From: a virus
Taxonomy: Duplodnaviria > Heunggongvirae > Uroviricota > Caudoviricetes
Virus record (IMG/VR): IMGVR_UViG_2529292883_000006
Strand: one strand, 5' to 3'
Length of the DNA: 40,402 nt
Part shown: in pieces, positions 938 to 37,287 of the stretch
Position numbering within the stretch: the first letter of the stretch is position 1
Layout: each line of letters opens with the position of its first letter
Made by a program: the position numbers and the translations under genes
The notes under the pieces: model-generated
What the model was told of the DNA's origin: nothing
Seen by the model: the letters and a program-made list of their open reading frames with translations, nothing else
Database searches by the model: none

Positions 938-1975
938 TTAACTACCCTCTAAAATCCCCACTTTGCCTCCAAAGTGTGGACACAATGTGGACATTCCCAC
1001 AAGAGGATTATAATTCACTGCATCCAATAAATAATCAGGTGCAAAATGAGCATATGTCATTGTTTGTGAAATATCTGCGTGACCAAGAATTCTTTGTAAC
1101 GCAATTATATTCCCGCCCTTCATCATAAAATGAGTAGCAAACGTATGACGCAATGCATGAGCTGCCTGACCATCAGGTAAATTAGGTTTTGCCTCTTTCA
1201 TTTTTAAACGAAAAGTTTTGTAACTCACACGAAAAAGTCGACCAGATTCGCGATGCCTTACAATATTTACAACCTCATCTGAAACGGGAACAACTCGCCG
1301 ATCACCATTTTTTGTAAGCGTAAATATAACCCTATTGCCCACAATGTTTTCGGCTTTGAGCTGATAAGCCTCACCCCACCTTGCACCAGTTGCAAGCAAG
1401 AGAACTGCAATCCGGAAATAATCACCAGAGCATAAGGATAATAACCGCTTAACCTCAGACTCAGTAAAGTAAGACATCTCAGTTTTTGGCTCTTTTAAAG
1501 CAGATATTGCCGCCACAGGATTTTCACCATGAAACTCATCGATCTCAGCCATCGCCTTAAACATACCGCTCAGGGCAAAAAGGTCATGGTTAATCGTTGA
1601 AGCCTTTATACCTTGCCCCAATCTATACGCCCGGTATTCGATAAGGCATCGACCATCAATCTGGTAAATCATGGGATCCCCCATATCCTGGCAAATACAG
1701 CTTAACGCACTAAGCCTACGATTAGCGTAGTTCTTATTACGTCCAATGAGCTGCCACCACAAAGCGATAAACTCACTCAGTCGCCGCTTGTCTGCTGGAC
1801 GACTCAGGTAGTCATGGTTTTGATACTTTGCAATGATGCTTCGTTCAAAAGCATGCGCCTCCGCTTTTCTCTCAAACTTCCGCCGGATACGCTTTCCGTC
1901 GCGCCCGCGCGGCCTTACATCCACTTCATAGCGACCATCTTCGAGCTTCTTAACAGACACAAGAAGTCCCTCCAA
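938..1975 (-). CDS. int: Tyrosine site-specific integrase (P2 Int-like)
   Basis: 345 aa. The N-terminus KKLEDGRYEVDVRPRGRDGKRIRRKF and the C-terminal HALRHTFATHF...LQRILGHADISQTMTYAHF (catalytic R, H-x-x-R, Y) follow the phage-integrase pattern. It sits adjacent to attL. Confidence 0.9.
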   Translation of the reverse strand: MEGLLVSVKKLEDGRYEVDVRPRGRDGKRIRRKFERKAEAHAFERSIIAKYQNHDYLSRPADKRRLSEFIALWWQLIGRNKNYANRRLSALSCICQDMGDPMIYQIDGRCLIEYRAYRLGQGIKASTINHDLFALSGMFKAMAEIDEFHGENPVAAISALKEPKTEMSYFTESEVKRLLSLCSGDYFRIAVLLLATGARWGEAYQLKAENIVGNRVIFTLTKNGDRRVVPVSDEVVNIVRHRESGRLFRVSYKTFRLKMKEAKPNLPDGQAAHALRHTFATHFMMKGGNIIALQRILGHADISQTMTYAHFAPDYLLDAVNYNPLVGMSTLCPHFGGKVGILEGS

Positions 1976-2029: not shown

Positions 2030-2329
2030 TTAACCAATCTGTTTCCCGGAGGGGCCAGATTGTGTTGTCTCTGGCCCAGTGTGTGCAAGAGCCGGGGCGA
2101 TCTGACCTCGGCTAGGGTCTATACGGTCATACATGAACCAATCTTGATATTTATGGAAACGGGGATGACCAAAGAGTTTGATCGCAGCCTCCAATGACAT
2201 TTTCGCCTTGCCTAGCTCATAACCGTTGTACGTACCATAATTTACACCAATCAAATCAGCAACTTGCTTAGATTTAAGGCGTTCTGAATCTCGGATTAAC
2301 TGTAGTTTTTCATGTTGTGGTATTGACAT
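2030..2329 (-). CDS. Immunity repressor, P2 C-like (HTH)
   Basis: 99 aa with the motif ...GQIAPALAH... and an HTH segment (QVADLIGVNYGTYNGYELG). It lies immediately upstream of int on the same strand, as in P2. Confidence 0.8.
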   Translation of the reverse strand: MSIPQHEKLQLIRDSERLKSKQVADLIGVNYGTYNGYELGKAKMSLEAAIKLFGHPRFHKYQDWFMYDRIDPSRGQIAPALAHTGPETTQSGPSGKQIG

Positions 2330-3607: not shown

Positions 3608-4006
3608 ATGGCTAAAACCCGGCACAAATTCGCAACAGCAGCAGGATATTTTTGTATGAAGCAACGACGTAATTCTTCACAGCAACGCTTCCGCAACGGG
3701 GCGGAACTCCACGCTAACCGTTTCGCTACCAGCGCATCACGCAGCAGCTCTCGCTACAGCCTGAGCGAAACACACGCCACACCTGATGGCCATCCCGTAA
3801 AACAAATTGGCGAACACACCTGGCTGATTGAAAAAGCTGGAATCGTGGTCCACAAATGCCCACGCAATCCGTTTACCGGAAGCCGCATTTTTGCACTAAG
3901 CAGCGGCGACAATCAGTTCGGGCAGGATTTCACATTATACGAAGCACTTCGCACGGTTGATCGTCTGCTTCGCGGACAAAGTTTTATTAAACAGGTTGAT
4001 TTATAA
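3608..4006 (+). CDS. Hypothetical early protein (start may be the internal ATG at 3656)
   Basis: ORF in the early operon. No SD is visible before 3608; a weak one precedes 3656. Confidence 0.45.
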   Translation: MAKTRHKFATAAGYFCMKQRRNSSQQRFRNGAELHANRFATSASRSSSRYSLSETHATPDGHPVKQIGEHTWLIEKAGIVVHKCPRNPFTGSRIFALSSGDNQFGQDFTLYEALRTVDRLLRGQSFIKQVDL

Positions 4007-4016
4007 CAGGTGATTT

Positions 4017-4268
4017 ATGACCAAAGAGTATGCACAAGGTGTATTTATCCGTTTTATTGATTCTCGCGGTGAACTGTTATTGCGTGCATCAGCTATCAAT
4101 GGTGTGGCCAAGACAAAAGACGCAACCACTCATATTTATTTGGACAGCACCGCACAACTGATCGTGGAGCTTCCGTACCAGACTGTACGTGAAGTCATTA
4201 GCGAAGCTGAAAAGGCACGTCAGATTAATAGCGATGAACCATACATCGAAATTATCTGCATGGATTAA
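4017..4268 (+). CDS. Hypothetical early protein (83 aa)
   Basis: ORF with short spacing to its neighbours. Confidence 0.5.
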   Translation: MTKEYAQGVFIRFIDSRGELLLRASAINGVAKTKDATTHIYLDSTAQLIVELPYQTVREVISEAEKARQINSDEPYIEIICMD

Positions 4269-4303
4269 GAAGCTGAAACCCAGAAGACAGATTAAAGGGT
4301 GTT

Positions 4304-4549
4304 GTGATGGGCAAAGAATATAAAACTCTCATTAACAAAGCACTTGAGCGTTTTTATTTTCGCTTAAGTGCATCAGGCGCTCATGCTGAACGTGCAGCCC
4401 GTGACTCATTGACCAGGGCAATCCGGAGTCTGTATGACGTGGCTTTTTACGCTGATGATCTGGATGCACTTAACGAACTTTCCGAGCTTATCTGTGCAGC
4501 AGAATGTGGGGAACATATTGAACCGTATAAGCTGGGGAATATTGCATGA
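4304..4549 (+). CDS. Hypothetical early protein (81 aa)
   Basis: ORF with GGGTG-type RBS region upstream. Confidence 0.5.
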   Translation: MMGKEYKTLINKALERFYFRLSASGAHAERAARDSLTRAIRSLYDVAFYADDLDALNELSELICAAECGEHIEPYKLGNIA

Positions 4550-4659
4550 GTATATTTATCTCATGGCTTGTTCTGATTATTTCGGTGGCCTGCGCCATTG
4601 GGATTATGCGAATTATTCATTCAGTAAAAAAGATTGAACGCTTTTTCACTGACGAATAA
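4546..4659 (+). CDS. Putative small single-TM membrane protein (37 aa)
   Basis: ATGA start/stop overlap with the upstream gene. Translation MSIFISWLVLIISVACAIGIMRIIHSVKKIERFFTDE has a hydrophobic core. It is below the ORF-track size cutoff. Confidence 0.3.
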   Translation: MSIFISWLVLIISVACAIGIMRIIHSVKKIERFFTDE

Positions 4660-4751
4660 CAGCTTAAACAAAACACCAGATTAAACCCGAAAATCTGAAA
4701 ACTATCCGCATTCGCGGAGGTATTCGCACACGTAAATAACGGAGATATAAA

Positions 4752-5168
4752 ATGAACGCAAAAGAAGAAGGCATTATCGACACATTAAAAAAAATATCAG
4801 AAGCGGAAGATGAAATGGCTAAAGATGCCGTGAAGCGTAGCCAACATATGGCAGCACTTCACGCACTGACCATTGCAAAAATCACCGCTGACGCAGCCAA
4901 AATTATTGAGGAACAGAGCAAAGAAATCGACACTCTTAAAACACAGTCAACAGTTGCAGCCATGAATCCGTCCAGCATTGGACGCTGCATTTATATTCTT
5001 GGTTCAGCAATGATGCTGCAATACACCATTATTGCCGAACTGCACGGCAAATACCTGATAACGCCTTACCACACAAAAGAGTCAGAGCTTCTGACAAATA
5101 TCCGCCTGATAGAACGCTCTCAAGCTGTATTCATTGATGACGCGCAACGTGCCGTATTTAACGCATAG
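4752..5168 (+). CDS. Hypothetical early protein (138 aa)
   Basis: ORF with GGAG RBS (cggagatataaaATG). Confidence 0.5.
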   Translation: MNAKEEGIIDTLKKISEAEDEMAKDAVKRSQHMAALHALTIAKITADAAKIIEEQSKEIDTLKTQSTVAAMNPSSIGRCIYILGSAMMLQYTIIAELHGKYLITPYHTKESELLTNIRLIERSQAVFIDDAQRAVFNA

Positions 5169-5191
5169 GGTTACTGGACAAAGGGGGCGCA

Positions 5192-5395
5192 ATGGCAATT
5201 AAGCATTTTTCCGTCGTTCGCTTTACCTCCAGAGGGCGCGAATACGAGGTCGACGAACGCCTGATTACCACTATCGACAAACATCGTTCGGAAAAGGATG
5301 CACACCACATCTACCTCACTGACGGCACTTACTTCTGCGCCACCAACGTGGCGCGAGTAAATCTTATCCGACAGGTACAGGAGCCACGCAGATGA
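5192..5395 (+). CDS. Hypothetical early protein (67 aa)
   Basis: ORF with GGGGG RBS; its stop overlaps the next start. Confidence 0.45.
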   Translation: MAIKHFSVVRFTSRGREYEVDERLITTIDKHRSEKDAHHIYLTDGTYFCATNVARVNLIRQVQEPRR

Positions 5396-5658: not shown

Positions 5659-5954
5659 GCACCATCAACCACCAGAAGCTACGCGAACTGGCATTTGCCC
5701 TGCAACGAATGGCAACTCCTCAAAAATTACTGGCATTTCGCGCAATGCTCTCGCCGTCTGCTGTGCTGGCACTGCTGGATGAGCTGGAGCACGCCAGAAC
5801 CACGGCTCCTGCCATTCGCCTGACACTCCATCATGAAATCAAGGATTTCTGCGCGACGCTGGAGTCACCAGGTGAATCAGAAACACCGGAGGCAATGCAG
5901 CAAGAGCTGCTGCAACGCATTGACAAGGTTTTCGATTTTTTCCTTAACCAGTAA
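5655..5954 (+). CDS. Hypothetical early protein (99 aa)
   Basis: Coupled ORF (ATGA overlap). Confidence 0.5.
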   Translation: MSTINHQKLRELAFALQRMATPQKLLAFRAMLSPSAVLALLDELEHARTTAPAIRLTLHHEIKDFCATLESPGESETPEAMQQELLQRIDKVFDFFLNQ

Positions 5955-5964
5955 GGGCCGCAAC

Positions 5965-6168
5965 ATGAACAACAAGACATGGTTTCGTGCATATGCATGG
6001 GCGCTGGTATGCGTCCTCGTCTCTCTCATTCTGTATGTAGGGGTACTCCCCCGAATGATTTCATCAGACAGCTCCTTCCTGGTATTGCTGGGCATTTTCA
6101 TTGCCATGCTGTACCCGGCAGGCGTTGTTCGCCTTTTCAGTAAGTACATCAAGGAAATTAAACAATGA
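5965..6168 (+). CDS. Small two-TM membrane protein (67 aa), coupled to the downstream SPFH gene
   Basis: Translation has two hydrophobic helices (WALVCVLVSLILYVGVL; FLVLLGIFIAMLY). AAGGG RBS. Its stop overlaps the ATG of the next gene. Confidence 0.5.
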   Translation: MNNKTWFRAYAWALVCVLVSLILYVGVLPRMISSDSSFLVLLGIFIAMLYPAGVVRLFSKYIKEIKQ

Positions 6169-6995
6169 AGAAATTCAGACTCTTTCAGATTCTCCCGCTT
6201 TTTGCCGCCATCCTGCTGGTTGGCTGCGATCGCGTTGAGCCAGGTAATGTGGGCATCAAAGTCAACAAGCTGGGCGACGACAAAGGCGTTGGCGAAGTGG
6301 TTGGCGTTGGTCGCTACTGGACTGGCTGGAATACCGAGGTTTACATCTTCCCGACCTTCAAACAAATGAAGACCTACGATGAGCCGTTCAGCTTTCAGAT
6401 GAGTGACGGCACAACCATCGGCTATCACATCGGTGTGGCCTACAAGGTTGATCCATCCAAAGTTACTACAGTGTTTCAGACCTACCGCAAAGGCGTGGAT
6501 GACATTACCGACACTGACCTGCGCCAGAAGATCGCCGACGCACTCAACCGACTGGCCAGCAAAATGACCACCGATAAATTTATCGACGGTGGCAAGTCTG
6601 AACTGCTGGATTCAGCACTTAAAGACATTCAGGCAGAAATGACACCTATCGGCATTCAGGTAATGAGCCTCTCTTATGTCGGTAAACCGGAATACCCACC
6701 AACCGTTATCGACAGCATTAATGCCAAAGTCACGGCAAACCAGAAAACTCTGCAACGCGAGCAGGAAGTCAAGCAACGCGAAGCAGAAGCCAACATGCTG
6801 CGCGCAGAAGCTGCCGGACAAGCTGATGCCATTCGCACAAAAGCCCAGGCTGAAGCCGACGCCATTCGTTTGCGCGGTGAAGCTCTGCGTCAGAATCCCG
6901 GCGTTATGGAGCTGGAAGCGATTAACAAATGGAACGGCACGCTGCCGCAATACATGACCAGTAATACCGCTGTTCCGTTTGTTCCGGTGAAGTAA
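6165..6995 (+). CDS. SPFH/Band-7 (prohibitin/stomatin-like) domain lipoprotein
   Basis: Signal peptide with lipobox (LLVGC). The C-terminal Ala/Glu-rich coiled-coil stretch (EQEVKQREAEANMLRAEAAGQADAIRTKAQAEADAIR) is typical of SPFH proteins. Confidence 0.75.
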   Translation: MKKFRLFQILPLFAAILLVGCDRVEPGNVGIKVNKLGDDKGVGEVVGVGRYWTGWNTEVYIFPTFKQMKTYDEPFSFQMSDGTTIGYHIGVAYKVDPSKVTTVFQTYRKGVDDITDTDLRQKIADALNRLASKMTTDKFIDGGKSELLDSALKDIQAEMTPIGIQVMSLSYVGKPEYPPTVIDSINAKVTANQKTLQREQEVKQREAEANMLRAEAAGQADAIRTKAQAEADAIRLRGEALRQNPGVMELEAINKWNGTLPQYMTSNTAVPFVPVK

Positions 6996-8199: not shown

Positions 8200-8589
8200 A
8201 TGATTGACCATCATGACTTCGTAAAATGGGTGCGCCCACAGGACACCCGTCTGGCTCCCGTTCTCCAGGGATTATTTGATCTCTACATCCGTGGTCGTGA
8301 CAACAGAGCGCGCACTACAAAACCGGAGAATGCGGACACCCTTTATTTCACAGTAGACGACTGCTACCGCGTGGACTTCACACCACACGGACTGGCGTTG
8401 CACTGCCTGACACCGCACGGCGAATCACTGCTGGCGTATTACGACTCCCCGGCCTCCGTATTTGCGGCAATGCTGGCGCATCGCACTGCTGGCGGGTGTG
8501 CCTCGCTGAGTGAATACACCGCTGAGTTTAACCGCCTTTCCGCCCTCTTCTCACAGGAGTGGCAGCGCGTGACGGGATACCAGCCATGA
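8200..8589 (+). CDS. Hypothetical protein upstream of and coupled to gene A
   Basis: RBS agaggggag before the ATG. Its stop overlaps the gene A ATG (ATGA at 8586-8589). Confidence 0.55.
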   Translation: MIDHHDFVKWVRPQDTRLAPVLQGLFDLYIRGRDNRARTTKPENADTLYFTVDDCYRVDFTPHGLALHCLTPHGESLLAYYDSPASVFAAMLAHRTAGGCASLSEYTAEFNRLSALFSQEWQRVTGYQP

Positions 8590-11426
8590 GTGAGTTTGCA
8601 TGGAGCTGGAATGAACCACGGCCAGCCATTGATCCGGCCAGATTTACGGAGCGCAGGCAGGAAACTGAAACCGACCTGCAACGCGCCATCCGTTACTACC
8701 TTGAGGCAGACAAAAAGGCCCAGGAAGAACAGGAAGCGAAAGAGGAAGCCTTTTTCGCACAATCCGCCATGGGTAAAAAACTCATGGCATCCCTTGAGGA
8801 AGCCGGACAGCGTGAAGAGCTGGCACAAAGCATCATCAGCAAGCGTCAGGCAACAGAACAAGACCCGGTGGCCCGTGCTTTTGCCACACTGAAGGTGCTT
8901 CCCGTTTATCTGCGTGAACCACTGAGCCGCCGCCTCTCTTTTTTACGTAAGAAGCAGGAATCTGACCGCCAGAAAGGCAAAAAGAGTCGACCAGCAGAGG
9001 GCTACGCACGCGGAACCCTGCGCAAAATATTCGAACGTCTGGATCGCACTGACGGGCGCTGGCTGACACCGGGTTATCGCTCCCTTGCCGGACGCGAACG
9101 CCTGGACGATTTGCTTTACCTGCCGCAGCTCAACAAACACCAGATACAGACGCTGGCCACCATGACGGCGGCGATGTTCAGCAGCACCTTCGAAAAACTC
9201 TGCGATGGCTTTGGCGCGACCGATGGCGAACTGACCATGGATGTAACGCTGAAGGCGTATCAGATGCTGGCCCGCATGGCGTTACACCTGCACGCCATGC
9301 CTCCACATTATGACGCACTGACAACAGACAAAGACCAGAGGAACGAACCGGACACGGAGCTGCTGCCGGGCGCAATCCTTCGCCTGACCTGTGCAGAATG
9401 GTGGAAACGCAAACTGTGGCTGTTACGTTGCGAGTGGAGAGAAGAACAACTCCGCGCCGCCTGTCTGGTTTCCAGAAAAACATCGCCCTATCTGAGCCAG
9501 GACGCGTTAAGCGAGTTTCGCGCACAGCGCGAGAAAACACGCGATTTCCTGAAAAGTTTCATGCTGGAAAATGAAGACGGGTTCACGATTGATCTCGAGA
9601 CGGTGTATTACGCGGGAGTAAGTAACCCGGTTCACCGTAAGGCAGAAATGATGGCCACCATGAAGGGGCTGGAACTTCTGGCCGAAGCCCGTGGCGACAA
9701 AGCGGTGTTTCTGACTGTCACCTGCCCGTCAAAATACCACGCCACAACAGAGAACGGTCATCCGAATCCCAAATGGAACGGGGCCACCATGCGCGACTCC
9801 AGCGATTACCTGGTTAACACGTTTTTTGCGGCGGTCCGCAAAAAACTGAACCGCGACGGTCTTCGCTGGTATGGCATCCGCACGGTGGAGCCTCACCATG
9901 ACGGCACCGTGCACTGGCATATGATGGTCTTTGCTCATCCGGAAGAAATCGACAGCATCGTGGCCATCACCCGCGATATTGCCATTCAGGAAGACCGCCA
10001 CGAGCTGGGCAATGATATTACTCCGCGCTTTAAGGCAGAGTACGTCGACGGTTCGAAAGGTACGCCGACCAGCTACATCGCCACCTACATCGGAAAGAAC
10101 CTGGACAGCCGCGCCGTGGATGGCATTGACCCGAAAACAGGCAAACCGCGCATCGACGACGAATCAGGAAAGACGATGGCAGAAAGCGTGGAACGCGCCA
10201 TCGGCTGGGCGCGCCTTCACCGGGTCCGCCAGTTCCAGTTCTTTGGCATCCCTTCCCGTCAGGTGTGGCGTGAACTGCGCCGCCTTGCCTGTCAGATGGC
10301 ACGTAACCCACAGGGACCGCAACGTCTGGAAAATGACGCAATGGATGCGGTTCTTGCTGCCGCTGATGCCGGATGTTTTGCCACCTACATAGAGAAACAG
10401 GGCGGCGTGCTTGTTCCACGCAAAGACTACCTGATTCGCACCGCCTACGACCTCGCAGATGAACTGAACGATTACGGCGAGCAGAGTGTACAGATTTACG
10501 GGATCTGGTCGCCGCTCATCGGGGAGTCTTCCCGCGTGTGCACGCACCCGGATAACTGGAAGCTGGTAAGACGTAAACCGGAAGCGGAAGACAGCGCCCG
10601 CGAAAATGGTTTTGACCTTCAGGGCGGCCCTGCCGCCCCTTGGACTCGTGGCAATAACTGTCCCCGTGTACAGGAAACGGACAACAACGGGACAGAACAG
10701 CCGGAAGAACGGCCAGCACCGTGGCCGCAGCTCCCTGACGGCGTTGAAGTGAACGAATGGATGCGCTCACTGAAACGGCACGAACGCCGGGCGCTGATGC
10801 GTTCGCTGCGTGACAAACAGGCAAAAAACAGCAGTGATGAAATGCAGAGCTGGACACAGAGCCACAAACAGCCGCGACCTTTGCCTGATAACCACGAGTT
10901 ACTCGCTAAAGAATGGCGGGAGTCTGCCGAATCTCTCGGCCTGCATATCGGTGAACAGCAGATGCAGCACCTGTTACGGGGCGGCAGCCTGTACGTTGAC
11001 GGCAGCATCATTGCACCGCAGGGATTTGAAATTGTACGCAAACCGGATACCCGCCCGGACAGCCGAATCACGCAGCTCTGGCAACGCCTGAGCCGTAATC
11101 ACGGCGTAAGCAGCACGGAGATCCGCCATAACCCGGTCGCCGGCTATCTGGAGCAGCTGGGGGCATCAGACCCCGAAGCCGCCGCACGCCTGGCATCCAC
11201 ACTTCAGCAGGACCAGAACACCATGAAAACCCCCGTTACCGTGCTTTCTGACATGTTGCGCGCCATCCGTGACGCAGAGCACGCACAGAGAATCAGTGAA
11301 ACCACTGAACGCGCCCACCGCAAAGCAGACCTGCTGCGGGGTAGCCTGACCAGTGGAAACAAAAAACAGACAGAAACGGGATTCACAAATCCCGTAAATG
11401 AGCAAAAAACGTGCCGCGATATATGA
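8586..11426 (+). CDS. Rolling-circle replication initiator (P2 gpA-like HUH endonuclease), 946 aa
   Basis: HUH motif (GTVHWHMMVF) and paired catalytic tyrosines (SYIATYIGK). Position corresponds to P2 gene A. The start at 8586 is chosen from translational coupling. Confidence 0.85.
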   Translation: MSEFAWSWNEPRPAIDPARFTERRQETETDLQRAIRYYLEADKKAQEEQEAKEEAFFAQSAMGKKLMASLEEAGQREELAQSIISKRQATEQDPVARAFATLKVLPVYLREPLSRRLSFLRKKQESDRQKGKKSRPAEGYARGTLRKIFERLDRTDGRWLTPGYRSLAGRERLDDLLYLPQLNKHQIQTLATMTAAMFSSTFEKLCDGFGATDGELTMDVTLKAYQMLARMALHLHAMPPHYDALTTDKDQRNEPDTELLPGAILRLTCAEWWKRKLWLLRCEWREEQLRAACLVSRKTSPYLSQDALSEFRAQREKTRDFLKSFMLENEDGFTIDLETVYYAGVSNPVHRKAEMMATMKGLELLAEARGDKAVFLTVTCPSKYHATTENGHPNPKWNGATMRDSSDYLVNTFFAAVRKKLNRDGLRWYGIRTVEPHHDGTVHWHMMVFAHPEEIDSIVAITRDIAIQEDRHELGNDITPRFKAEYVDGSKGTPTSYIATYIGKNLDSRAVDGIDPKTGKPRIDDESGKTMAESVERAIGWARLHRVRQFQFFGIPSRQVWRELRRLACQMARNPQGPQRLENDAMDAVLAAADAGCFATYIEKQGGVLVPRKDYLIRTAYDLADELNDYGEQSVQIYGIWSPLIGESSRVCTHPDNWKLVRRKPEAEDSARENGFDLQGGPAAPWTRGNNCPRVQETDNNGTEQPEERPAPWPQLPDGVEVNEWMRSLKRHERRALMRSLRDKQAKNSSDEMQSWTQSHKQPRPLPDNHELLAKEWRESAESLGLHIGEQQMQHLLRGGSLYVDGSIIAPQGFEIVRKPDTRPDSRITQLWQRLSRNHGVSSTEIRHNPVAGYLEQLGASDPEAAARLASTLQQDQNTMKTPVTVLSDMLRAIRDAEHAQRISETTERAHRKADLLRGSLTSGNKKQTETGFTNPVNEQKTCRDI

Positions 11427-11471
11427 AGCGCGCACAAAACAGGCAAAAGCGGGATTTAAAAATCCTGTAAA
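11374..11471. repeat. Two ~25-bp imperfect palindromic repeats (aaacgggattcacaaatcccgtaaa / aagcgggatttaaaaatcctgtaaa); candidate centromere (parC-like) or origin-associated site
   Basis: Two copies ~70 bp apart. The first lies in the last codons of gene A, the second in the A-parM intergenic region. Each has internal dyad symmetry. Confidence 0.4.
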
Positions 11472-11502
11472 CGATTAATTAATCAACATAAGGAAAAGCG
11501 AC

Positions 11503-12462
11503 ATGAAAATTTGTATCGACGACGGCTCCACCAACATCAAGCTGGCATGGACTGAGAACGGCGAACGCCGCAACGCCATCAGCCCGAACAGCTTCAAGTC
11601 GGAATGGTCTGCGCCGTTCGGTGGCACGCAGCCCGCGAACTACATGCTTGATGGCGTGCGCTATGGTTTTGATCCGGTCAGCGATCGCTTTGTCCAGACG
11701 ACCGACACGCAATACCAGTACAGCGATGTGAATGTCATCGCCGTTCATCACGCGCTGGTCAAATCAGGCATCACGCCACAGGAGGTGGATGTGGTTGTCA
11801 CCCTGCCACTGAGCGAGTATTTCGACACAAACGCACAACCGGACATGGCCAACATCAACCGCAAAAAAGCGAACGTTATGCGCCCGGTGGAGTACCAGAA
11901 CGGCGAGGCATTCACTATCCGTAACGTGCGGGTTATGCCTGAATCCATTCCGGCTGGCTTTAAAGCACTGGCTGACATGAGTCCGTTTGAATCCCTGCTG
12001 ATTGTGGATTTGGGCGGAACCACGCTGGATGTGGCAAAGGTTCAGGGGCAACTGGCAGGTATCAGCCAGGTGTTTTGCGATCCACACGTAGGCGTTTCTC
12101 TGATGGCCGATGCCGTGCTGTCGGTGATGGCCACCAACGGTATGCGCACCAGTCACCACATCGCCAATACCATTATCGAACATCGCCACGATGAAGCCTG
12201 GCTGCGCCAGCACATCCACAATGACGCGCATTACGCCAGTCTGATGGCAGTTATTCGTGAAAAGGAGGAAACACTGAAACAACGCGTGATCCGCGCGCTG
12301 GCGGGTTTTTCGGGTTACGGGCGGGTGATGGTTGTCGGTGGAGGAGCGGAGATTGTGGCACCCGCTATCCGCGAAGCCTGCGGAGTTAATGCGACTTTCA
12401 TCGCGGACGGGGTGCCACAGTTTGCTCTGGTTAATGGGCTGTACGCAATGGACAAGGAGTAA
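11503..12462 (+). CDS. parM: Actin-like segregation ATPase, ParM/StbA family
   Basis: 319 aa. Translation begins MKICIDDGSTNIKLAW and carries ISPNSFK, YSDVNVIAVHHAL, VMPESIPAG, DLGGTTLD, GGGAE and LVNGLY motifs, which align along the whole length with plasmid R1 ParM as I recall it. Confidence 0.85.
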   Translation: MKICIDDGSTNIKLAWTENGERRNAISPNSFKSEWSAPFGGTQPANYMLDGVRYGFDPVSDRFVQTTDTQYQYSDVNVIAVHHALVKSGITPQEVDVVVTLPLSEYFDTNAQPDMANINRKKANVMRPVEYQNGEAFTIRNVRVMPESIPAGFKALADMSPFESLLIVDLGGTTLDVAKVQGQLAGISQVFCDPHVGVSLMADAVLSVMATNGMRTSHHIANTIIEHRHDEAWLRQHIHNDAHYASLMAVIREKEETLKQRVIRALAGFSGYGRVMVVGGGAEIVAPAIREACGVNATFIADGVPQFALVNGLYAMDKE

Positions 12463-12466
12463 ATCA

Positions 12467-12781
12467 ATGACGACACCAACCAGACGGATAAGTTTCTATC
12501 TGAAGCCCGCCGTCGTCAAGAGCGAACGGGAGGCGTGCAGCTACCTCGACAGCCTGCCAGCCTCCGAACGCAGCCGCGCACAACGCGCGGCTTTTCTGGC
12601 CGGACTGGCTCTTATAAAACGCACCCCCGCGTTGGCGTATTCGCTGGCAGAATGGTCAGAAGACGAAATACGGATGCCACCGCTACCAGTACAGCCTGAA
12701 AAACCGGCGCAACCAGCAGCAGACAGCGCCCCCCATATGCAGCAGGTGAAAAAGAATATTCAGGCGTTTTTCCCGAAGTGA
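12467..12781 (+). CDS. parR: ParR/StbB-like centromere-binding adaptor
   Basis: 104 aa immediately downstream of parM with an AGGAG RBS. The N-terminus RISFYLKP...SERSRAQRAAFLAGLAL resembles the R1 ParR ribbon-helix-helix region. Confidence 0.7.
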   Translation: MTTPTRRISFYLKPAVVKSEREACSYLDSLPASERSRAQRAAFLAGLALIKRTPALAYSLAEWSEDEIRMPPLPVQPEKPAQPAADSAPHMQQVKKNIQAFFPK

Positions 12782-12795
12782 AAACAGGAGTAACT

Positions 12796-13083
12796 ATGTC
12801 CACCATTACCAAAGAATGGTTACAACGTAAAATCACAGAGTTTAAATCGTGGCGCGAAGACATCCCGTTCGGTCTTGATGAAGACGATCACAATATGTTA
12901 ATCGCACTGGAAATCGCACTTGCATCACTGGAAGCAGAGCCAGTGGCATGGATGCACGCAAATAATCCTATTGGAATACCGGCGATAACAAGAAGTAAAG
13001 ATGTTGCAGACAGCTGGCGCTCTAAGGGATGGAATGTATTGCCTCTTTATTCACTGACCCGCTCCATCAATTTATGCCATTAA
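12796..13083 (+). CDS. Hypothetical small protein (95 aa), lower GC than surrounding genes
   Basis: ORF with AGGAG RBS 5 nt before the ATG. Coupled to the downstream Rrf2 gene. Confidence 0.5.
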   Translation: MSTITKEWLQRKITEFKSWREDIPFGLDEDDHNMLIALEIALASLEAEPVAWMHANNPIGIPAITRSKDVADSWRSKGWNVLPLYSLTRSINLCH

Positions 13084-13094
13084 TGGAAGTAATC

Positions 13095-13454
13095 ATGATG
13101 AAAGATAATTCCGGAAGCCAGCGTGCATCAGTTGCAGTTATGGTAATGATTAAATTTGTGAAACAGTACACCGGAAAGCCAATCTCGCTCCGGCAATTAA
13201 GCAAAGAAACCGTTTCACTGTCATATCTGGAGCAAATATTCAGATATTTACGGGAAAGTAGCCTGGTAAAAGCCACACGCGGCCCGGGTGGTGGATATAT
13301 CCCAACAAAAGAAAATTACAGTGTTGGTGATATTGTCCGGGCAATGAAATGTTCCGGATTATATACACAGCACGTTATTCTGGCTGCACTGGATAATATT
13401 TCTTTAACCAGCCTGCAGGAAGACACAAATTATCAGTTGTCTGCCATTAAATAA
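13095..13454 (+). CDS. Rrf2-family (IscR/NsrR-like) winged-helix transcriptional regulator
   Basis: Segment SLSYLEQIFRYLRESSLVKATRGPGGGYIPTKENYSVGDIVRAM matches the Rrf2 HTH signature (compare IscR [33 protein letters not shown]). AT-rich codon usage. Confidence 0.8.
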   Translation: MMKDNSGSQRASVAVMVMIKFVKQYTGKPISLRQLSKETVSLSYLEQIFRYLRESSLVKATRGPGGGYIPTKENYSVGDIVRAMKCSGLYTQHVILAALDNISLTSLQEDTNYQLSAIK

Positions 13455-13457
13455 GAA

Positions 13458-13502
13458 AACCCGGAACGGGTGCGCAAATTCTTTGTGCGCCCGTTCCGGG
13501 TT
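13458..13502. terminator. Bidirectional stem-loop terminator between convergent genes
   Basis: 16-bp stem cccggaacgggtgcgca / tgcgcccgttccggg. T-run on the minus-strand side. Confidence 0.55.
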
Positions 13503-13522
13503 GGACAAGCGAAGCGCGTCAG

Positions 13523-13780
13523 CTATCCGGCCTGCAACAACTCCAGAGCCATTTGTTTTTCTTCCGGACGCATCCGCTCAATCAACAGCTTTAACACACC
13601 ATTCTCCAGCCCGCTGGGCACCAGTGTGTGCGAGTAGGTCAGATTCATCACCCAGGTATGTCCGCACTCGAGACGGGTGCAACGGTAATAAACATCTGCA
13701 AAGCGATCATCTTTCCAGAAGGTCTTCTCAATCACTGCGCGTTCACCACAGCAAAAACATCGCGCTTTTTGTCTGCGCAT
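13523..13780 (-). CDS. Ogr/Delta-family zinc-finger late-gene activator (start uncertain, ORF extends to 13849)
   Basis: C-x2-C ... C-x4-C arrangement (CFCCGERA...YYRCTRLECGH) typical of Ogr/B/Delta. It lies directly downstream of the portal gene on the minus strand. Confidence 0.65.
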   Translation of the reverse strand: MRRQKARCFCCGERAVIEKTFWKDDRFADVYYRCTRLECGHTWVMNLTYSHTLVPSGLENGVLKLLIERMRPEEKQMALELLQAG

Positions 13781-13845
13781 TTTCCACCTCCCAGAGCAGC
13801 GTTTTCCTGCAGCTGATTTTACCTGCTCTTTTCGCATGTCGCACA

Positions 13846-14880
13846 TCACTCCGGGGGCTCATCAAATTCAAGAATAAATTTCACCTCCCCCAGTCGCCTG
13901 ATATCCGGGTCACTGTTGATTCCCTCCATAATCAGGCGGCGCATCGGAATAACCTCATCCCTGTAATATGCCTCGCGGGATTTCAGTGGGTCACCAAGCC
14001 CGGCCGTATTTGCGGGAATGATGCCGGCAAGTCCGGGTGGGAAACGGTGCGCAACGAGCTGATCCTGGGCACTGATGGTTTTTATATTCAGGAACTCATC
14101 TTTTGTACCTGAATCCCCGATAGGGATCACCTTAACGCCTTCTTTGTCTCCGCCCGGTATATTGATAAACATGGATTTAAAATTGCCCGCCCCTTTTGAC
14201 GCCTCTATCTTTTTACGGAATTCCGCCTCGAGCTCGGGATCCATGTCCGGGTCAGTGGAATACAGGATATAACCAAGATGTGCGCCGTTCTTGTAATACT
14301 TGCGGCGAAAGCGGGTGGCATCCACATTCAGCATGGCGGATTCCATCCCGTGAATATAATCCGGGACACCGTAAACCTGCTGTTGCGGGTCATAAATGGC
14401 CACGAACACCACTTCGCCTGGCGGGTAAACGAGATCTTCCAGTGCCGCCTGCACAATCACCGTGCCACCCTCGTTGTTACGCCGCAGGTACAGAGAAGGT
14501 AACGTATGCAGGCGCACCACTCGACCGAAGCCATTGCGCACTTTAAGCAACCCCATATCCCCGAATATCAGCAGATTGGTTACTGCTGCCGCCATGGCGG
14601 CGAGTGTCATACCACCACCACCCCGAAAACCCTGCATGATCATATTGACGCGCGCACGCAATACCGCGCCGTGATACGGTGCGATATTGGACAACATGGC
14701 GAGATCCATGCGCTCAATGGGCGGCGTGTACCAGCCGTTATAGCCATCCCAGAGCGAGCCGTAATAACAGCCCCATGCAGCGACCGGTTCCGGGTCACCA
14801 AATTCAATAAAAGTCATTTTGCTGGCTGTTTTTTTTGCCACGCCATCGTGTAACACGGGGTATTTTTTCTTTTTACTCAT
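13846..14880 (-). CDS. Portal protein (P2 gpQ-like)
   Basis: 344 aa, same length and position as P2 Q. Transcribed divergently from the scaffold/capsid genes. Confidence 0.9.
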   Translation of the reverse strand: MSKKKKYPVLHDGVAKKTASKMTFIEFGDPEPVAAWGCYYGSLWDGYNGWYTPPIERMDLAMLSNIAPYHGAVLRARVNMIMQGFRGGGGMTLAAMAAAVTNLLIFGDMGLLKVRNGFGRVVRLHTLPSLYLRRNNEGGTVIVQAALEDLVYPPGEVVFVAIYDPQQQVYGVPDYIHGMESAMLNVDATRFRRKYYKNGAHLGYILYSTDPDMDPELEAEFRKKIEASKGAGNFKSMFINIPGGDKEGVKVIPIGDSGTKDEFLNIKTISAQDQLVAHRFPPGLAGIIPANTAGLGDPLKSREAYYRDEVIPMRRLIMEGINSDPDIRRLGEVKFILEFDEPPE

Positions 14881-16660
14881 CTGACAGGATCCATGTTGAT
14901 TTGCGCTTGTGCTTATAGTTCAGGGGTTCATTACTTGCGGCATGAGCTATGGCAAAGAAGATGTCAGCGTGCCCGGTTTCTTCGCTACGTTCGGCGGTGA
15001 AAGTGACTTTATTGCCGCTGTTGGTGGATTCCTGACGAATGGCCAGGAACGATGCCGGAATATCCGTGGCTTCTTCATCCCACTCAATACGGTTGGCGTA
15101 AATCAGATCCAGCATCTTCATCACCAGGCGGTTTTTGGATTCCACGCTGTAATGAATGGCCACTGTTTCACGGCGGGCAAATCCCTGAACCAGCTCAAAG
15201 ACACCGTAGCCAAGACCGGTGACGTCAATGCCGATAAACGTCATGTTATAGCGTGCTTTAATGCTGCGTATACGCTCTGCCATAAACTGGAATGACATGC
15301 TGCGCCAGTGGTGTTTTTCCAGCACGCGGAATCGTTCTGCCGCAACCAGCGGCGGTGCCAGCACTACAAATGTGGCGTTATCGCCGGAGCGCGCAGGGTC
15401 AAAGCCGCCCCAAACCTCACGGTTACCAAATGGCATGGACTCTTCCGGGTGAAAATCCTCCCACGTACTGACATCAACACCACAACGCACAAGATCATCA
15501 AATTTAAAGACGCTCTCTTTGTCATCCACAAACACACACATAAACAGCATATTGAACGCTGTTTCGTTGTATCGCTCGCGCAGCTCGTTGATGTCAGCAA
15601 GGTTAAAGCCGCCGGCAATGGCATCTTCCAGCGTAACCACATAGCGCCACTGACCATCCGGACATTCACGCCCACCATCGCGCAGCTCATCAAAGGACGG
15701 AAACTCAACCCCTTTTCGTTTCGGATCGCCTTTGCGCCATTCATCGCCAGACCAGAACGGGTAACCCTGGTGTGTTTTGGATGACGGCGTGGAGAAATAG
15801 GTAATGCGCCAGTGTTTATGGGTGGCCATCCCTGACGCCACTTCATTGAGACGGCGAAAACCGGGGATCCACAGGTATTCATCAATATACAGGTGGCCGC
15901 TGTTTGACTGCGCTGTGTTACTGTTGGTCGCCAGAAAATACAGTTCAGCCAGATTACTTAACTTAACCGGATTGCCTTTAATGGGAATGCCAAACTCTGT
16001 TTGTGCAATTTTTACAATATAAGTACGGAACACTTCGGCCTGACGTTTTGATGCCGATAAAAATATCTGTGTGTCGCCGGTTAATACTGCATCTTCAAAT
16101 GCCTCAAACGCGAAGTAATACGTCGCCCCAATCTGGCGGGATTTAAGCAGGTTGCGTACACGGCGGAATTTGTTTTCACGCAGGAGCAACTGGTAAGTAA
16201 ACAACTTTTTCGTAAACGGCTCAAAACTTTCAGCAGTCAGTCCGGAAACGTCATTAGCTTTGCGGGGGCGCTCTTTCTTACCTGCACCTTTTTCTCCGCG
16301 TTCTTCTTTTCCATAACGACCAGACTGGGGAATATCCGCTCCCATTCGTTCAATCTCGGCCATTCGTTCCGTGTGCTTGTTCCTGACCGACATCAGTTTG
16401 ACGTGATGGCCAATCAGGCGATCGAGTTCATCGTGTTCTTCCGGCGTTTTATGATCACGCTCCGCCAGTACAGCGAGACGACGGGCGATAACATCCTCCA
16501 CGCCTTCAGTATTAAGCTGTGTGTACCACTCAAACTTTGTCGCCCAGTAATAAACAATTCGCGGGCTGTTCAGTCCGAGTTTCTTTTGTATTTCTTTTGG
16601 TGTGTGCCTTTTCAGATAGAGCGATTTTGCAGCAGCAATCACCTCATCAGAATACGCCAT
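14873..16660 (-). CDS. Terminase large (ATPase) subunit (P2 gpP-like)
   Basis: 595 aa, upstream of the portal on the same strand. P2-type head-gene arrangement. Confidence 0.9.
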   Translation of the reverse strand: MAYSDEVIAAAKSLYLKRHTPKEIQKKLGLNSPRIVYYWATKFEWYTQLNTEGVEDVIARRLAVLAERDHKTPEEHDELDRLIGHHVKLMSVRNKHTERMAEIERMGADIPQSGRYGKEERGEKGAGKKERPRKANDVSGLTAESFEPFTKKLFTYQLLLRENKFRRVRNLLKSRQIGATYYFAFEAFEDAVLTGDTQIFLSASKRQAEVFRTYIVKIAQTEFGIPIKGNPVKLSNLAELYFLATNSNTAQSNSGHLYIDEYLWIPGFRRLNEVASGMATHKHWRITYFSTPSSKTHQGYPFWSGDEWRKGDPKRKGVEFPSFDELRDGGRECPDGQWRYVVTLEDAIAGGFNLADINELRERYNETAFNMLFMCVFVDDKESVFKFDDLVRCGVDVSTWEDFHPEESMPFGNREVWGGFDPARSGDNATFVVLAPPLVAAERFRVLEKHHWRSMSFQFMAERIRSIKARYNMTFIGIDVTGLGYGVFELVQGFARRETVAIHYSVESKNRLVMKMLDLIYANRIEWDEEATDIPASFLAIRQESTNSGNKVTFTAERSEETGHADIFFAIAHAASNEPLNYKHKRKSTWILSDE

Positions 16661-16746
16661 AAATAAACCTCACCTGCTGATGCAATTTTAATTTATGCAT
16701 TTTCAGCAAAGGCTTTTTTAAAAACGAATATCGCTTTTCGGTATTT

Positions 16747-36460: not shown

Positions 36461-36593
36461 TATCTTCTAACATATGAGTGGAAAATCCTACGGGGAAAAA
36501 TGTAAACCTCGTCCTTGCCCACTCATAAGAAGAAATTATCATTTCACTATTCGATTTTCAAAGAATCAATGTAGGTAAAAAGAAGATAGCTAT

Positions 36594-37166
36594 ATGACTA
36601 AATATATTTTTGCTCTTTATTTTATATTATTTGGTAATACGAAACATCTATTCGAATGCTGGAAAGTTGAAGTCATCCGTCGCGATCGATTTTTAATTCA
36701 TCGCCTACTAAGAGAGAAGAGATCACGCTCAAGAAAATACATCTTCTGGTGGAGACTTGCAAATGAAATGTTTATCCATGGCGGGAAATATACAAAAAAA
36801 GCAGCGAAGAAAATCAACCGCAAATTACTCAGTGAATACAGCTGTGATCTTGGTCTAGGGCTGACCGTTGGCAAGGGTCTGACAATTATCCATCACACGG
36901 GCATCGTTGTTACCAGTACGGCAATCATTGGAGAAAATCTGACCATCAGACAAAATACAACCATTGGTCGTAGTCAATCGGATAATGAACACGATAGAAT
37001 AACAATTGGCAATAACGTTGATATTGGCGCCCACTCATTCATTCTGGGCTCTGGTTTTAAAATTGGAGATAATGTCAAGATCGGGGCAATGTCATTTATC
37101 ATGGATGAAATTCCTTCAAACTGTACTTATGTCACCCGGAAAGAATCAAGGATAATATCTAAGTAA
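36594..37166 (+). CDS. Hexapeptide-repeat acetyltransferase (serine O-acetyltransferase / CysE-like left-handed beta-helix)
   Basis: Repeated [LIV]-G-x4 hexapeptides (GLTVGKGLTIIHHTGIVVTSTAIIGENLTI...IGNNVDIGAHSFILGSGFKIGDNVKIGAMSFI). AT-rich relative to the prophage core. Confidence 0.7.
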   Translation: MTKYIFALYFILFGNTKHLFECWKVEVIRRDRFLIHRLLREKRSRSRKYIFWWRLANEMFIHGGKYTKKAAKKINRKLLSEYSCDLGLGLTVGKGLTIIHHTGIVVTSTAIIGENLTIRQNTTIGRSQSDNEHDRITIGNNVDIGAHSFILGSGFKIGDNVKIGAMSFIMDEIPSNCTYVTRKESRIISK

Positions 37167-37287
37167 AATTAAAACTCAACCAATTACCACAAAAAACGCA
37201 GCGTAAAATCATGTGTTTACTTTTTGCCCCCTTGAGGGGGCATTTAAATATCAACAACATTCACAAAAACGAACTAATAAAACGAAA

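Follow-up and report, generated by a model that had tools for sequence, protein, structure and literature searches.

The 40,402-nucleotide stretch of DNA analyzed here (IMG/VR virus record IMGVR_UViG_2529292883_000006; Duplodnaviria; Heunggongvirae; Uroviricota; Caudoviricetes), hereafter called the window, raises the question of what a transcriptional regulator of the Rrf2 family does in a phage and whether it works together with the small gene that precedes it. Positions 12,796 to 13,502 hold two coupled, AT-rich genes, orf95 (95 aa) and rrf2 (119 aa), followed by a hairpin. With moderate confidence, we consider that the locus as a whole is best explained as accessory cargo that would be expressed early in phage development and that the product of rrf2, which we call mini-Rrf2, would act as an accessory regulator independent of an Fe-S cluster.

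The rrf2 gene lies on the plus strand and extends from an ATG at 13,095 to the TAA at 13,452-13,454, with GGAAG at 13,085-13,089; an alternative ATG at 13,083, which overlaps the orf95 stop as TAATG, would give a protein of 123 aa. Mini-Rrf2 falls in PHROG 24072 (unknown function) and had already been annotated as an Rrf2-family regulator. The original prediction, made from the sequence alone, had reached the same call, and it is right for the winged helix-turn-helix (wHTH) domain: residues 8-88 match profile positions 2-85 of 132 in the Pfam Rrf2 model (PF02082; E = 2.2e-13; 50.9 bits compared with a cutoff of 30). The superfamily model TIGR00738 (rrf2_super), by comparison, was matched only over the N-terminal two thirds of its profile and scored 53.5 bits, which is below its cutoff of 73.3. 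The best NCBIfam model was that of IscR (TIGR02010), with 59.3 bits compared with 49.2 bits for the CymR model, but this score is well below the equivalog cutoff of 207.55, and the same applies to the IscR equivalog model PRK10857 (46.3 bits compared with 275). Sequence and fold searches of the PDB ranked Escherichia coli IscR first. The best fold match was apo-IscR (4HF0; template modeling (TM) score 0.72), and all fold matches were Rrf2 proteins. In the wHTH domain (residues 14-87), mini-Rrf2 and E. coli IscR share 40% identity.

That the phage protein might be an Fe-S or redox sensor, as Rrf2 regulators normally are, did not survive a check of the Cys ligands. Alignment with canonical IscRs revealed a gap of ∼26 residues, which covers the Cys-rich loop that binds the cluster as well as the first, N-terminal half of the long dimerization helix; the equivalents of IscR residues ∼85-110 are deleted, and C92, C98, C104, and H107 are consequently absent. 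Mini-Rrf2 retains a single Cys, C86, which is replaced in members of its clade (see below) by A, P, T, G, K, or D. Because the Cys loop is deleted and no Cys is conserved in the clade, Fe-S sensing by mini-Rrf2 is excluded on sequence grounds. The residues with which IscR reads DNA have been kept. Base and groove contacts in the IscR-DNA complex are made by S40, E43, Q44, R59, and P61 (PMC9338935); these map to S43, E46, Q47, R62, and P64 of mini-Rrf2, all of which are present. Within the clade, S43, E46, and P64 do not vary, R62 hardly does, and Q47 is mostly retained. Only the distal half of the dimerization helix remains (VILAALDNISLTSL), L99 is invariant in the clade, and the monomer model places short helices at residues 88-118, with low confidence at the end.

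An all-against-all HMMER search at E < 1e-10 placed mini-Rrf2 in a group of ∼15 clusters (50% identity) of proteins of ∼95-123 aa, all with the same shortened C terminus. A profile of this group scored its members at 122 bits or more and canonical IscRs at 97 bits or less and so delimits a discrete clade. The rrf2 gene is under purifying selection: 13 alleles from E. coli, Salmonella, and IMG/VR loci contained 15 synonymous and 4 nonsynonymous polymorphisms (ratio 0.08), and the ratio of nonsynonymous to synonymous substitution rates (dN/dS) relative to the Salmonella copy was 0.11. All clade contexts that we retrieved are mobile elements. In the lambdoid Citrobacter phage Chris1 and Klebsiella phage Kp4865-4 and in a circular 51-kb Klebsiella record, the gene is found on the repressor strand between cI and exo/xis/int; in two lambdoid prophages (L004 and L035), it follows the replication genes on the Cro side. 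In these phage contexts, the relatives of mini-Rrf2 always lie within an early operon, which matches the position of rrf2 at the end of the early gene string of the window. Outside phages, one copy lies in a TraI-TraT region (L036) and another in a small integrase-bearing islet (L037), directly 3′ of a gene for a 58-aa hydrophobic protein resembling GhoT/OrtT. Searching viral contigs with three distant clade members (P0241, P0242, and P0243) yielded nothing useful, and in the literature, we found no report of Rrf2 or IscR proteins carried by phages. What is new here is that mini-Rrf2 belongs to a small, discrete, sensor-deleted clade, derived from IscR and confined to mobile elements, that it has kept the DNA-reading residues of IscR, that its gene is under purifying selection, and that the gene next to it is a recombinant Ea22-like gene and not an obligate partner. 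As a separate observation, L037 and L038 encode, at 5,814-6,348, a distant mini-Rrf2 of 115 aa that begins 10 nt downstream of the 58-aa protein, and these two genes could constitute a toxin-regulator pair.

How the gene would be expressed can be judged from its surroundings. The preceding gene, orf95, extends on the plus strand from an ATG at 12,796 to the TAA at 13,081-13,083, and its Shine-Dalgarno (SD) sequence, AGGAG, lies at 12,786-12,790, five bases upstream. The gap between parR and orf95 is 14 nt, and the gap between orf95 and rrf2 is 11 nt. Because the coupling to parR is as tight as that between the two genes themselves, orf95 and rrf2 are the last members of a longer string of same-strand genes and do not stand alone as a cassette. 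This string keeps its strand and its close spacing from the C-repressor/int end via gpA, parMR, and orf95 to rrf2, and no plus-strand terminator was found between gpA and the hairpin. A promoter scan of the cassette revealed no convincing promoter of its own; the sole match falls within orf95 and is no better than expected by chance. In the arrangement that we propose, orf95 and rrf2 would be the last two genes of an early rightward unit whose transcription ends at the hairpin, and they are probably cotranscribed with the early genes (gpA and parMR) after infection or induction.

The coupling and low GC content of the two genes, on which the original prediction had been built, were both confirmed. 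The GC content is 44.1% in orf95 and 41.4% in rrf2 (0.43 and 0.39, respectively, at third codon positions (GC3)) and 42.5% in the two-gene cassette, compared with 56.9% in gpA, 55.8% in parM, and 57.8% in parR (GC3 0.60-0.66) and a mean of 51.6% for the window. This places the cassette at the 6th percentile among intervals of the same size, which is low, yet not the minimum of the window. The lowest GC content was found at about 36,500-37,200, near the far end of the prophage (36.4% in a 659-bp interval from ∼36,520).

The hairpin at 13,458-13,502 has a 21-bp stem and a 3-nt loop and lies between the convergent genes rrf2 and ogr. It had been described as a strong bidirectional terminator, a description that stands for the minus strand only. 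As minus-strand RNA, the hairpin has a predicted energy of −32.2 kcal/mol (z = −5.9; two A·C mismatches), and the stem is followed, on this ogr side only, by the U-tract UUUUCUUAUUU; the hairpin is a canonical intrinsic terminator for ogr. As plus-strand RNA, the stem is stronger (−39.7 kcal/mol; z = −7.0; two G·U pairs), but the tail reads UUGGAC, and this hairpin without a U-tract is likely the stop of the early-strand transcript. The hairpin is 100% conserved in all 16 of the related loci checked, and in Salmonella, it remains with the cassette despite the presence of a further gene between hairpin and ogr. This gene (L005-L009; 6,946-7,575, minus strand) encodes a 209-aa protein (PHROG 12870; weak match to DUF6338), sits precisely between the hairpin and the stop codon of ogr, at a site corresponding to window 13,517-13,523, and reveals a second point of insertion in the slot. 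Just 3′ of the hairpin, a segment of 28 nt (13,504-13,531) that overlaps the ogr stop is 93% identical in phage vB_EcoM-569R5 (L003, 7,481-7,508), the cargo of which differs; this segment may be a conserved slot boundary or a recombination site.

The original prediction had left the 95-aa protein as an unknown, and homology searches revealed that it is no orphan. It matches PHROG 660 (3.3e-18) and PHROG 60 (9.2e-17), both of unknown function, and has 274 homologues in a large protein database; in tblastn searches, parts of it match genes of lambdoid and P22-like phages annotated as Ea22, EaA, or DUF550- or DUF551-containing. Judged from the shared N-terminal module and junction motif in its sequence, the orf95 product is a modular protein of the Ead/Ea22/EaA type. 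The family alignment consists of a variable N-terminal helix pair, the junction motif IALASLEAEPVAW, and interchangeable C-terminal modules; in the ALASLEAEP junction motif, the LEAE residues are invariant in the family, and the others are nearly so. An AF2 model (pLDDT 83.8) predicts a helical hairpin and a small α/β unit, for which fold searches returned nothing informative, and a sequence search of the PDB, the C-terminal domain of lambda Ea22 included, gave no match.

Comparison with draft genomes (L012-L015) revealed the chimeric origin of orf95. In these, the order in the slot is parR, a 137-aa gene, an unrelated 95-aa gene (PHROG 2821), an 88-aa gene, and rrf2, and orf95 residues 1-57 equal the N terminus of the 137-aa paralogue and residues 45-95 the C terminus of the 88-aa paralogue. 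Window 8,907-12,941 aligns with L012 2,406-6,440, and window 12,910-16,663 aligns with L012 7,094-10,847. The two alignments overlap by 32 bp on the plus strand (12,910-12,941), a recombination junction whose sequence codes for the motif EIALASLEAEPVA, invariant in the family; compared with the long form, the window lacks the 685 bp between the two repeat copies. The short and long forms differ by one recombination at the 32-bp repeat. We claim no direction for this event because, in complete E. coli genomes, only the short form was found. The chimera illustrates cleanly how modules are shuffled at a conserved junction motif.

The polymorphism of orf95 differs from that of rrf2 (4 synonymous and 12 nonsynonymous changes; ratio 0.82; Fisher p = 0.002), and the gene evolves nearly neutrally, is weakly constrained, and may be drifting. 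Its frame and SD sequence are nonetheless intact in all loci examined, and the one indel, in L025, removes 12 nt without breaking the frame. What is under selection is the 119-aa protein encoded by rrf2.

These results make it doubtful that the two genes constitute a functional module, as had been suggested. An 86-aa relative that shares the central module of orf95 occupies the same post-parR slot of many P88-like prophages that have no Rrf2 gene. Conversely, mini-Rrf2 relatives were retrieved in six other contexts; the neighbors differ in each, and an Ea22-like gene is found in none of them. Because each gene is found without the other and because their selective regimes differ, the evidence argues against an obligate pair.

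The slot itself is well known. The region between gpA and gpQ in P2-like prophages of E. coli is a hotspot with 1,650 gene arrangements in 18,150 loci, among them many anti-phage systems (Rousset 2022, PMC9122126), and a second study of the P2-like hotspot came to a like conclusion (Vassallo 2022, PMC9519451). The cassette behaves as hotspot cargo in that it lies between gpA and gpQ of a P2-family prophage whose relatives have alternative contents. It is already catalogued in a published hotspot table: the supplementary table of Rousset 2022 (PMC9122126) lists StbA, the hypothetical protein WP_000104418, Ogr_Delta, the Rrf2 protein WP_000974052, and Plasmid_stab_B together, and WP_000104418 and WP_000974052 are the RefSeq accessions of these two genes in E. 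coli K_EC180 (L001). The main text of the P2 hotspot papers does not mention the cassette. In K_EC180 (L001, 6,744-12,731), the cassette and ogr are followed by tail-fiber genes rather than by portal and terminase genes, and this prophage copy is rearranged or degraded.

Copies of the cassette at least 99% identical were found in 45 of 5426 complete E. coli genomes, all of them chromosomal. Salmonella prophages of this type carry the cassette as well, with an orf95 protein that is 94% identical. No nucleotide match to the cassette was found in 50,697 deposited phage records, whereas the parMR genes of P88 and other deposited relatives are ∼95% identical to those of the window. In P88, 569R5, and many prophages, homology to the window ends inside the 3′ end of parR (∼12,620-12,665) and is followed by other small genes. 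Because the slot is filled differently in relatives and the cassette is rare, the proposal that it is separately acquired cargo is supported. Among the alternative contents, P88-like prophages L031-L034 (∼3,950-5,260) have post-parR arrays made up of a gene for a 110-aa zf-C4_ClpX protein and genes of 104-111, 64, 69, and 86 aa, all with 44-46% GC; these arrays resemble the strings of nin or ea genes of lambdoid phages.

The window as a whole is a mosaic P2-family E. coli prophage with a P88-like early region, because gpA-parMR is 93-96% identical in nucleotide sequence to phage P88 (Xuanwuvirus, Peduoviridae) and its relatives, but the late genes, portal and terminase included, are only ∼66-69% identical to deposited phages. 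At the left end, a fragment of the host glutaminase gene (1-669) is followed by genes for a tyrosine integrase (938-1,975, minus strand) and an HTH_3 repressor (2,030-2,329, minus strand). From ∼2,400, a long plus-strand string of early genes leads to the gene for the 955-aa replication endonuclease gpA (8,559-11,426), to parM (11,503-12,462; StbA_N, 2.3e-82; ParM C-terminal domain, Pfam PF21523, 1.3e-68), and to parR (12,476-12,781; Plasmid_stab_B, 1.8e-24). These last two genes are a type II partition pair, are backbone genes in P88-like prophages, and lie directly 5′ of orf95 on the same strand. Beyond the hairpin, the minus strand encodes an ogr/Delta-type zinc-finger late activator (13,523-13,780; Ogr_Delta, 2.1e-11), convergent with rrf2, the portal protein Q (13,846-14,880), and the terminase P (14,873-16,660); ogr adjoins Q in the window, and P88 has no ogr at that position. 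The early region also contains accessory-looking genes for a 276-aa SPFH/Band_7 protein (6,165-6,995) and a DUF4761 protein (3,608-4,006). A 42-nt direct repeat is present twice, at 11,360-11,401 and 11,433-11,474 (81% identity between the copies). Each copy contains a palindrome (ACGGGATTCACAAATCCCGT and GCGGGATTTAAAAATCCTGT); the two straddle the gpA stop, the second lying 30-70 nt upstream of parM, and are candidates for parC/ParR-binding sites and for the parM promoter region. A search of the window for a cos sequence of the P2/186 type gave no match, and an Rfam scan of 11,300-14,000 returned nothing credible.

We propose that mini-Rrf2 would bind DNA constitutively, presumably as a dimer, through its IscR-type wHTH domain and without an Fe-S or redox switch; constitutive binding is proposed because the Cys-rich sensor loop has been lost. 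Its likeliest role would be to adjust host or phage gene expression at an early stage of development, as an accessory transcription factor. The orf95 gene is a separate accessory gene of the Ea22/EaA type, produced by recombination between paralogues, and not an obligate partner of the regulator. Several points count against this explanation. Half of the Rrf2 dimerization helix is gone, which bears on both dimerization and DNA binding, and scans of the whole window for IscR type 1 and type 2 operators gave 0 and 2 matches, respectively, compared with 5.8 expected, none of them above chance. The weak promoter-like site inside orf95 (12,806-12,833) could drive rrf2 independently of the early genes, although such matches occur at chance level. 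Further, the pair is coinherited in E. coli and Salmonella, which may reflect a functional link; this is, however, expected because the genes are neighbors in a recently shared segment, where identity is about the same as in the flanks. The location adds a last such point, for the slot is a published defense hotspot, enriched in P2-like phages for anti-phage systems.

It is this location above all that suggests a role for the pair, or for mini-Rrf2 alone, as an anti-phage exclusion or defense module, for example one that represses the early genes of incoming phages with matching operators. The AT-richness and patchy distribution of the cassette would fit such a role, and because the regulator has relatives in lambdoid phages, a P2-type prophage could carry a cross-acting copy. 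Nevertheless, we regard a defense function as unlikely. A scan of PADLOC-DB 2.0 gave no match (E ≤ 1) for orf95, mini-Rrf2, ParM, or ParR; orf95 and mini-Rrf2, which together amount to 214 aa, both lack enzymatic, membrane, and effector domains; and the two genes are no obligate pair. The P2 genes tin and old have their own promoters; the cassette is co-oriented with and abuts the early operon, and no promoter of its own was found. In addition, of the hotspot cargo that Rousset et al. (PMC9122126) tested, just a part was active. A second possibility is that mini-Rrf2 mimics apo-IscR at host IscR sites whatever the Fe-S status of the cell, or poisons host IscR by forming heterodimers with it, and so rewires the regulon for Fe-S and oxidative-stress responses. 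IscR is indeed the closest family, the base-contact residues are kept, and the sensor loop is deleted, and the failure to find IscR-type sites on the prophage mildly favors targets on the host chromosome. On the other hand, identity to E. coli IscR is just 40%, the shortened dimerization helix may alter half-site spacing, and the SLSYLEQ and RGPGGGY motifs are structurally the most conserved, so that their retention may reflect the fold and not DNA specificity; we give this possibility a minor share of the probability. Similarly tentative is the wider proposal that the whole clade is an invention of mobile elements, in which an IscR with its sensor excised would be expressed early by temperate phages and some plasmids or islands as a decoy of the host metalloregulator; on the present evidence we rather doubt it.

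Control of the adjacent parMR pair, which the original prediction had also raised, is suggested only by adjacency on the same strand and is very improbable. The parMR genes are ∼95% identical in P88, 569R5, 705R2, phiSM, and many prophages that lack the cassette, the relatives of mini-Rrf2 elsewhere have no par genes nearby, and the palindromic 42-nt repeat upstream of parM, the candidate ParR site, does not resemble an IscR site. In type II par loci, moreover, ParR autoregulates its own operon. That rrf2 is a fragment of a host gene carried over by imprecise excision, and orf95 a noncoding artifact, would agree with a protein shorter than canonical Rrf2 proteins and with the nearly neutral polymorphism of orf95, but has next to no probability. 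The host-fragment part is ruled out by the divergence from host IscR (40% identity) and by the position of the gene between gpA and Q, ∼11 kb into the prophage as counted from the int/att end. The GC content of 41%, the strong purifying selection on rrf2, and the occurrence of the same deletion throughout a discrete clade (∼95-123 aa) on other mobile elements likewise speak against a fragment. The orf95 frame and its SD sequence, for their part, are intact in every locus examined, which argues against an artifact.

If mini-Rrf2 works as an accessory regulator, as we favor, then phages would have stripped the sensor from a host metalloregulator and would use its DNA-binding half as a constitutive tool. 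This would offer a handle on how temperate phages touch Fe-S and oxidative-stress physiology and would mark an occupant of the gpA-gpQ hotspot that is no obvious defense system. Both proteins had been annotated and catalogued before but were uncharacterized, and a phage genomicist would regard them as fairly ordinary cargo.

Among known systems, mini-Rrf2 most resembles E. coli IscR (4HF0, 4HF1, and 4CHU), with which it shares the wHTH fold (see above), the SLSYLEQ recognition helix, the RGPGGGY wing, and the S/E/Q/R/P contacts. Unlike IscR, it lacks the four cluster ligands, its dimerization helix is about half as long, and it is encoded by mobile elements and not ahead of an isc operon. CymR is controlled by its partner protein CysK. 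Like mini-Rrf2, CymR (2Y75 and 3T8R) is a DNA-binding regulator with the Rrf2 fold and without a cluster, and the two match structurally; however, CymR has a full-length dimerization helix, and mini-Rrf2 is nearer to IscR in sequence. The orf95 product shares with lambda Ea22 and P22 EaA, which are encoded in the exo-xis region (PMC7093339 and PMC10834534), an N-terminal module and the junction motif ALASLEAEPVAW, and all are accessory genes of early operons assembled from shuffled modules; a pro-lysogenic effect has been reported for Ea22. In contrast to lambda Ea22, which combines a coiled coil with a C-terminal domain solved by nuclear magnetic resonance, orf95 has no detectable match to that domain, is much shorter, and resides in a P2-type rather than a lambdoid phage. 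Finally, the cassette occupies the same slot as the P2 tin/old locus, between the replication endonuclease and the portal gene, where many alternative cargoes are found. It differs from that locus in having no defense domain or PADLOC match and in continuing the early operon instead of forming an independent unit, and the slot in the P88-like lineage differs in holding, in addition, the backbone genes parMR and, here, ogr.

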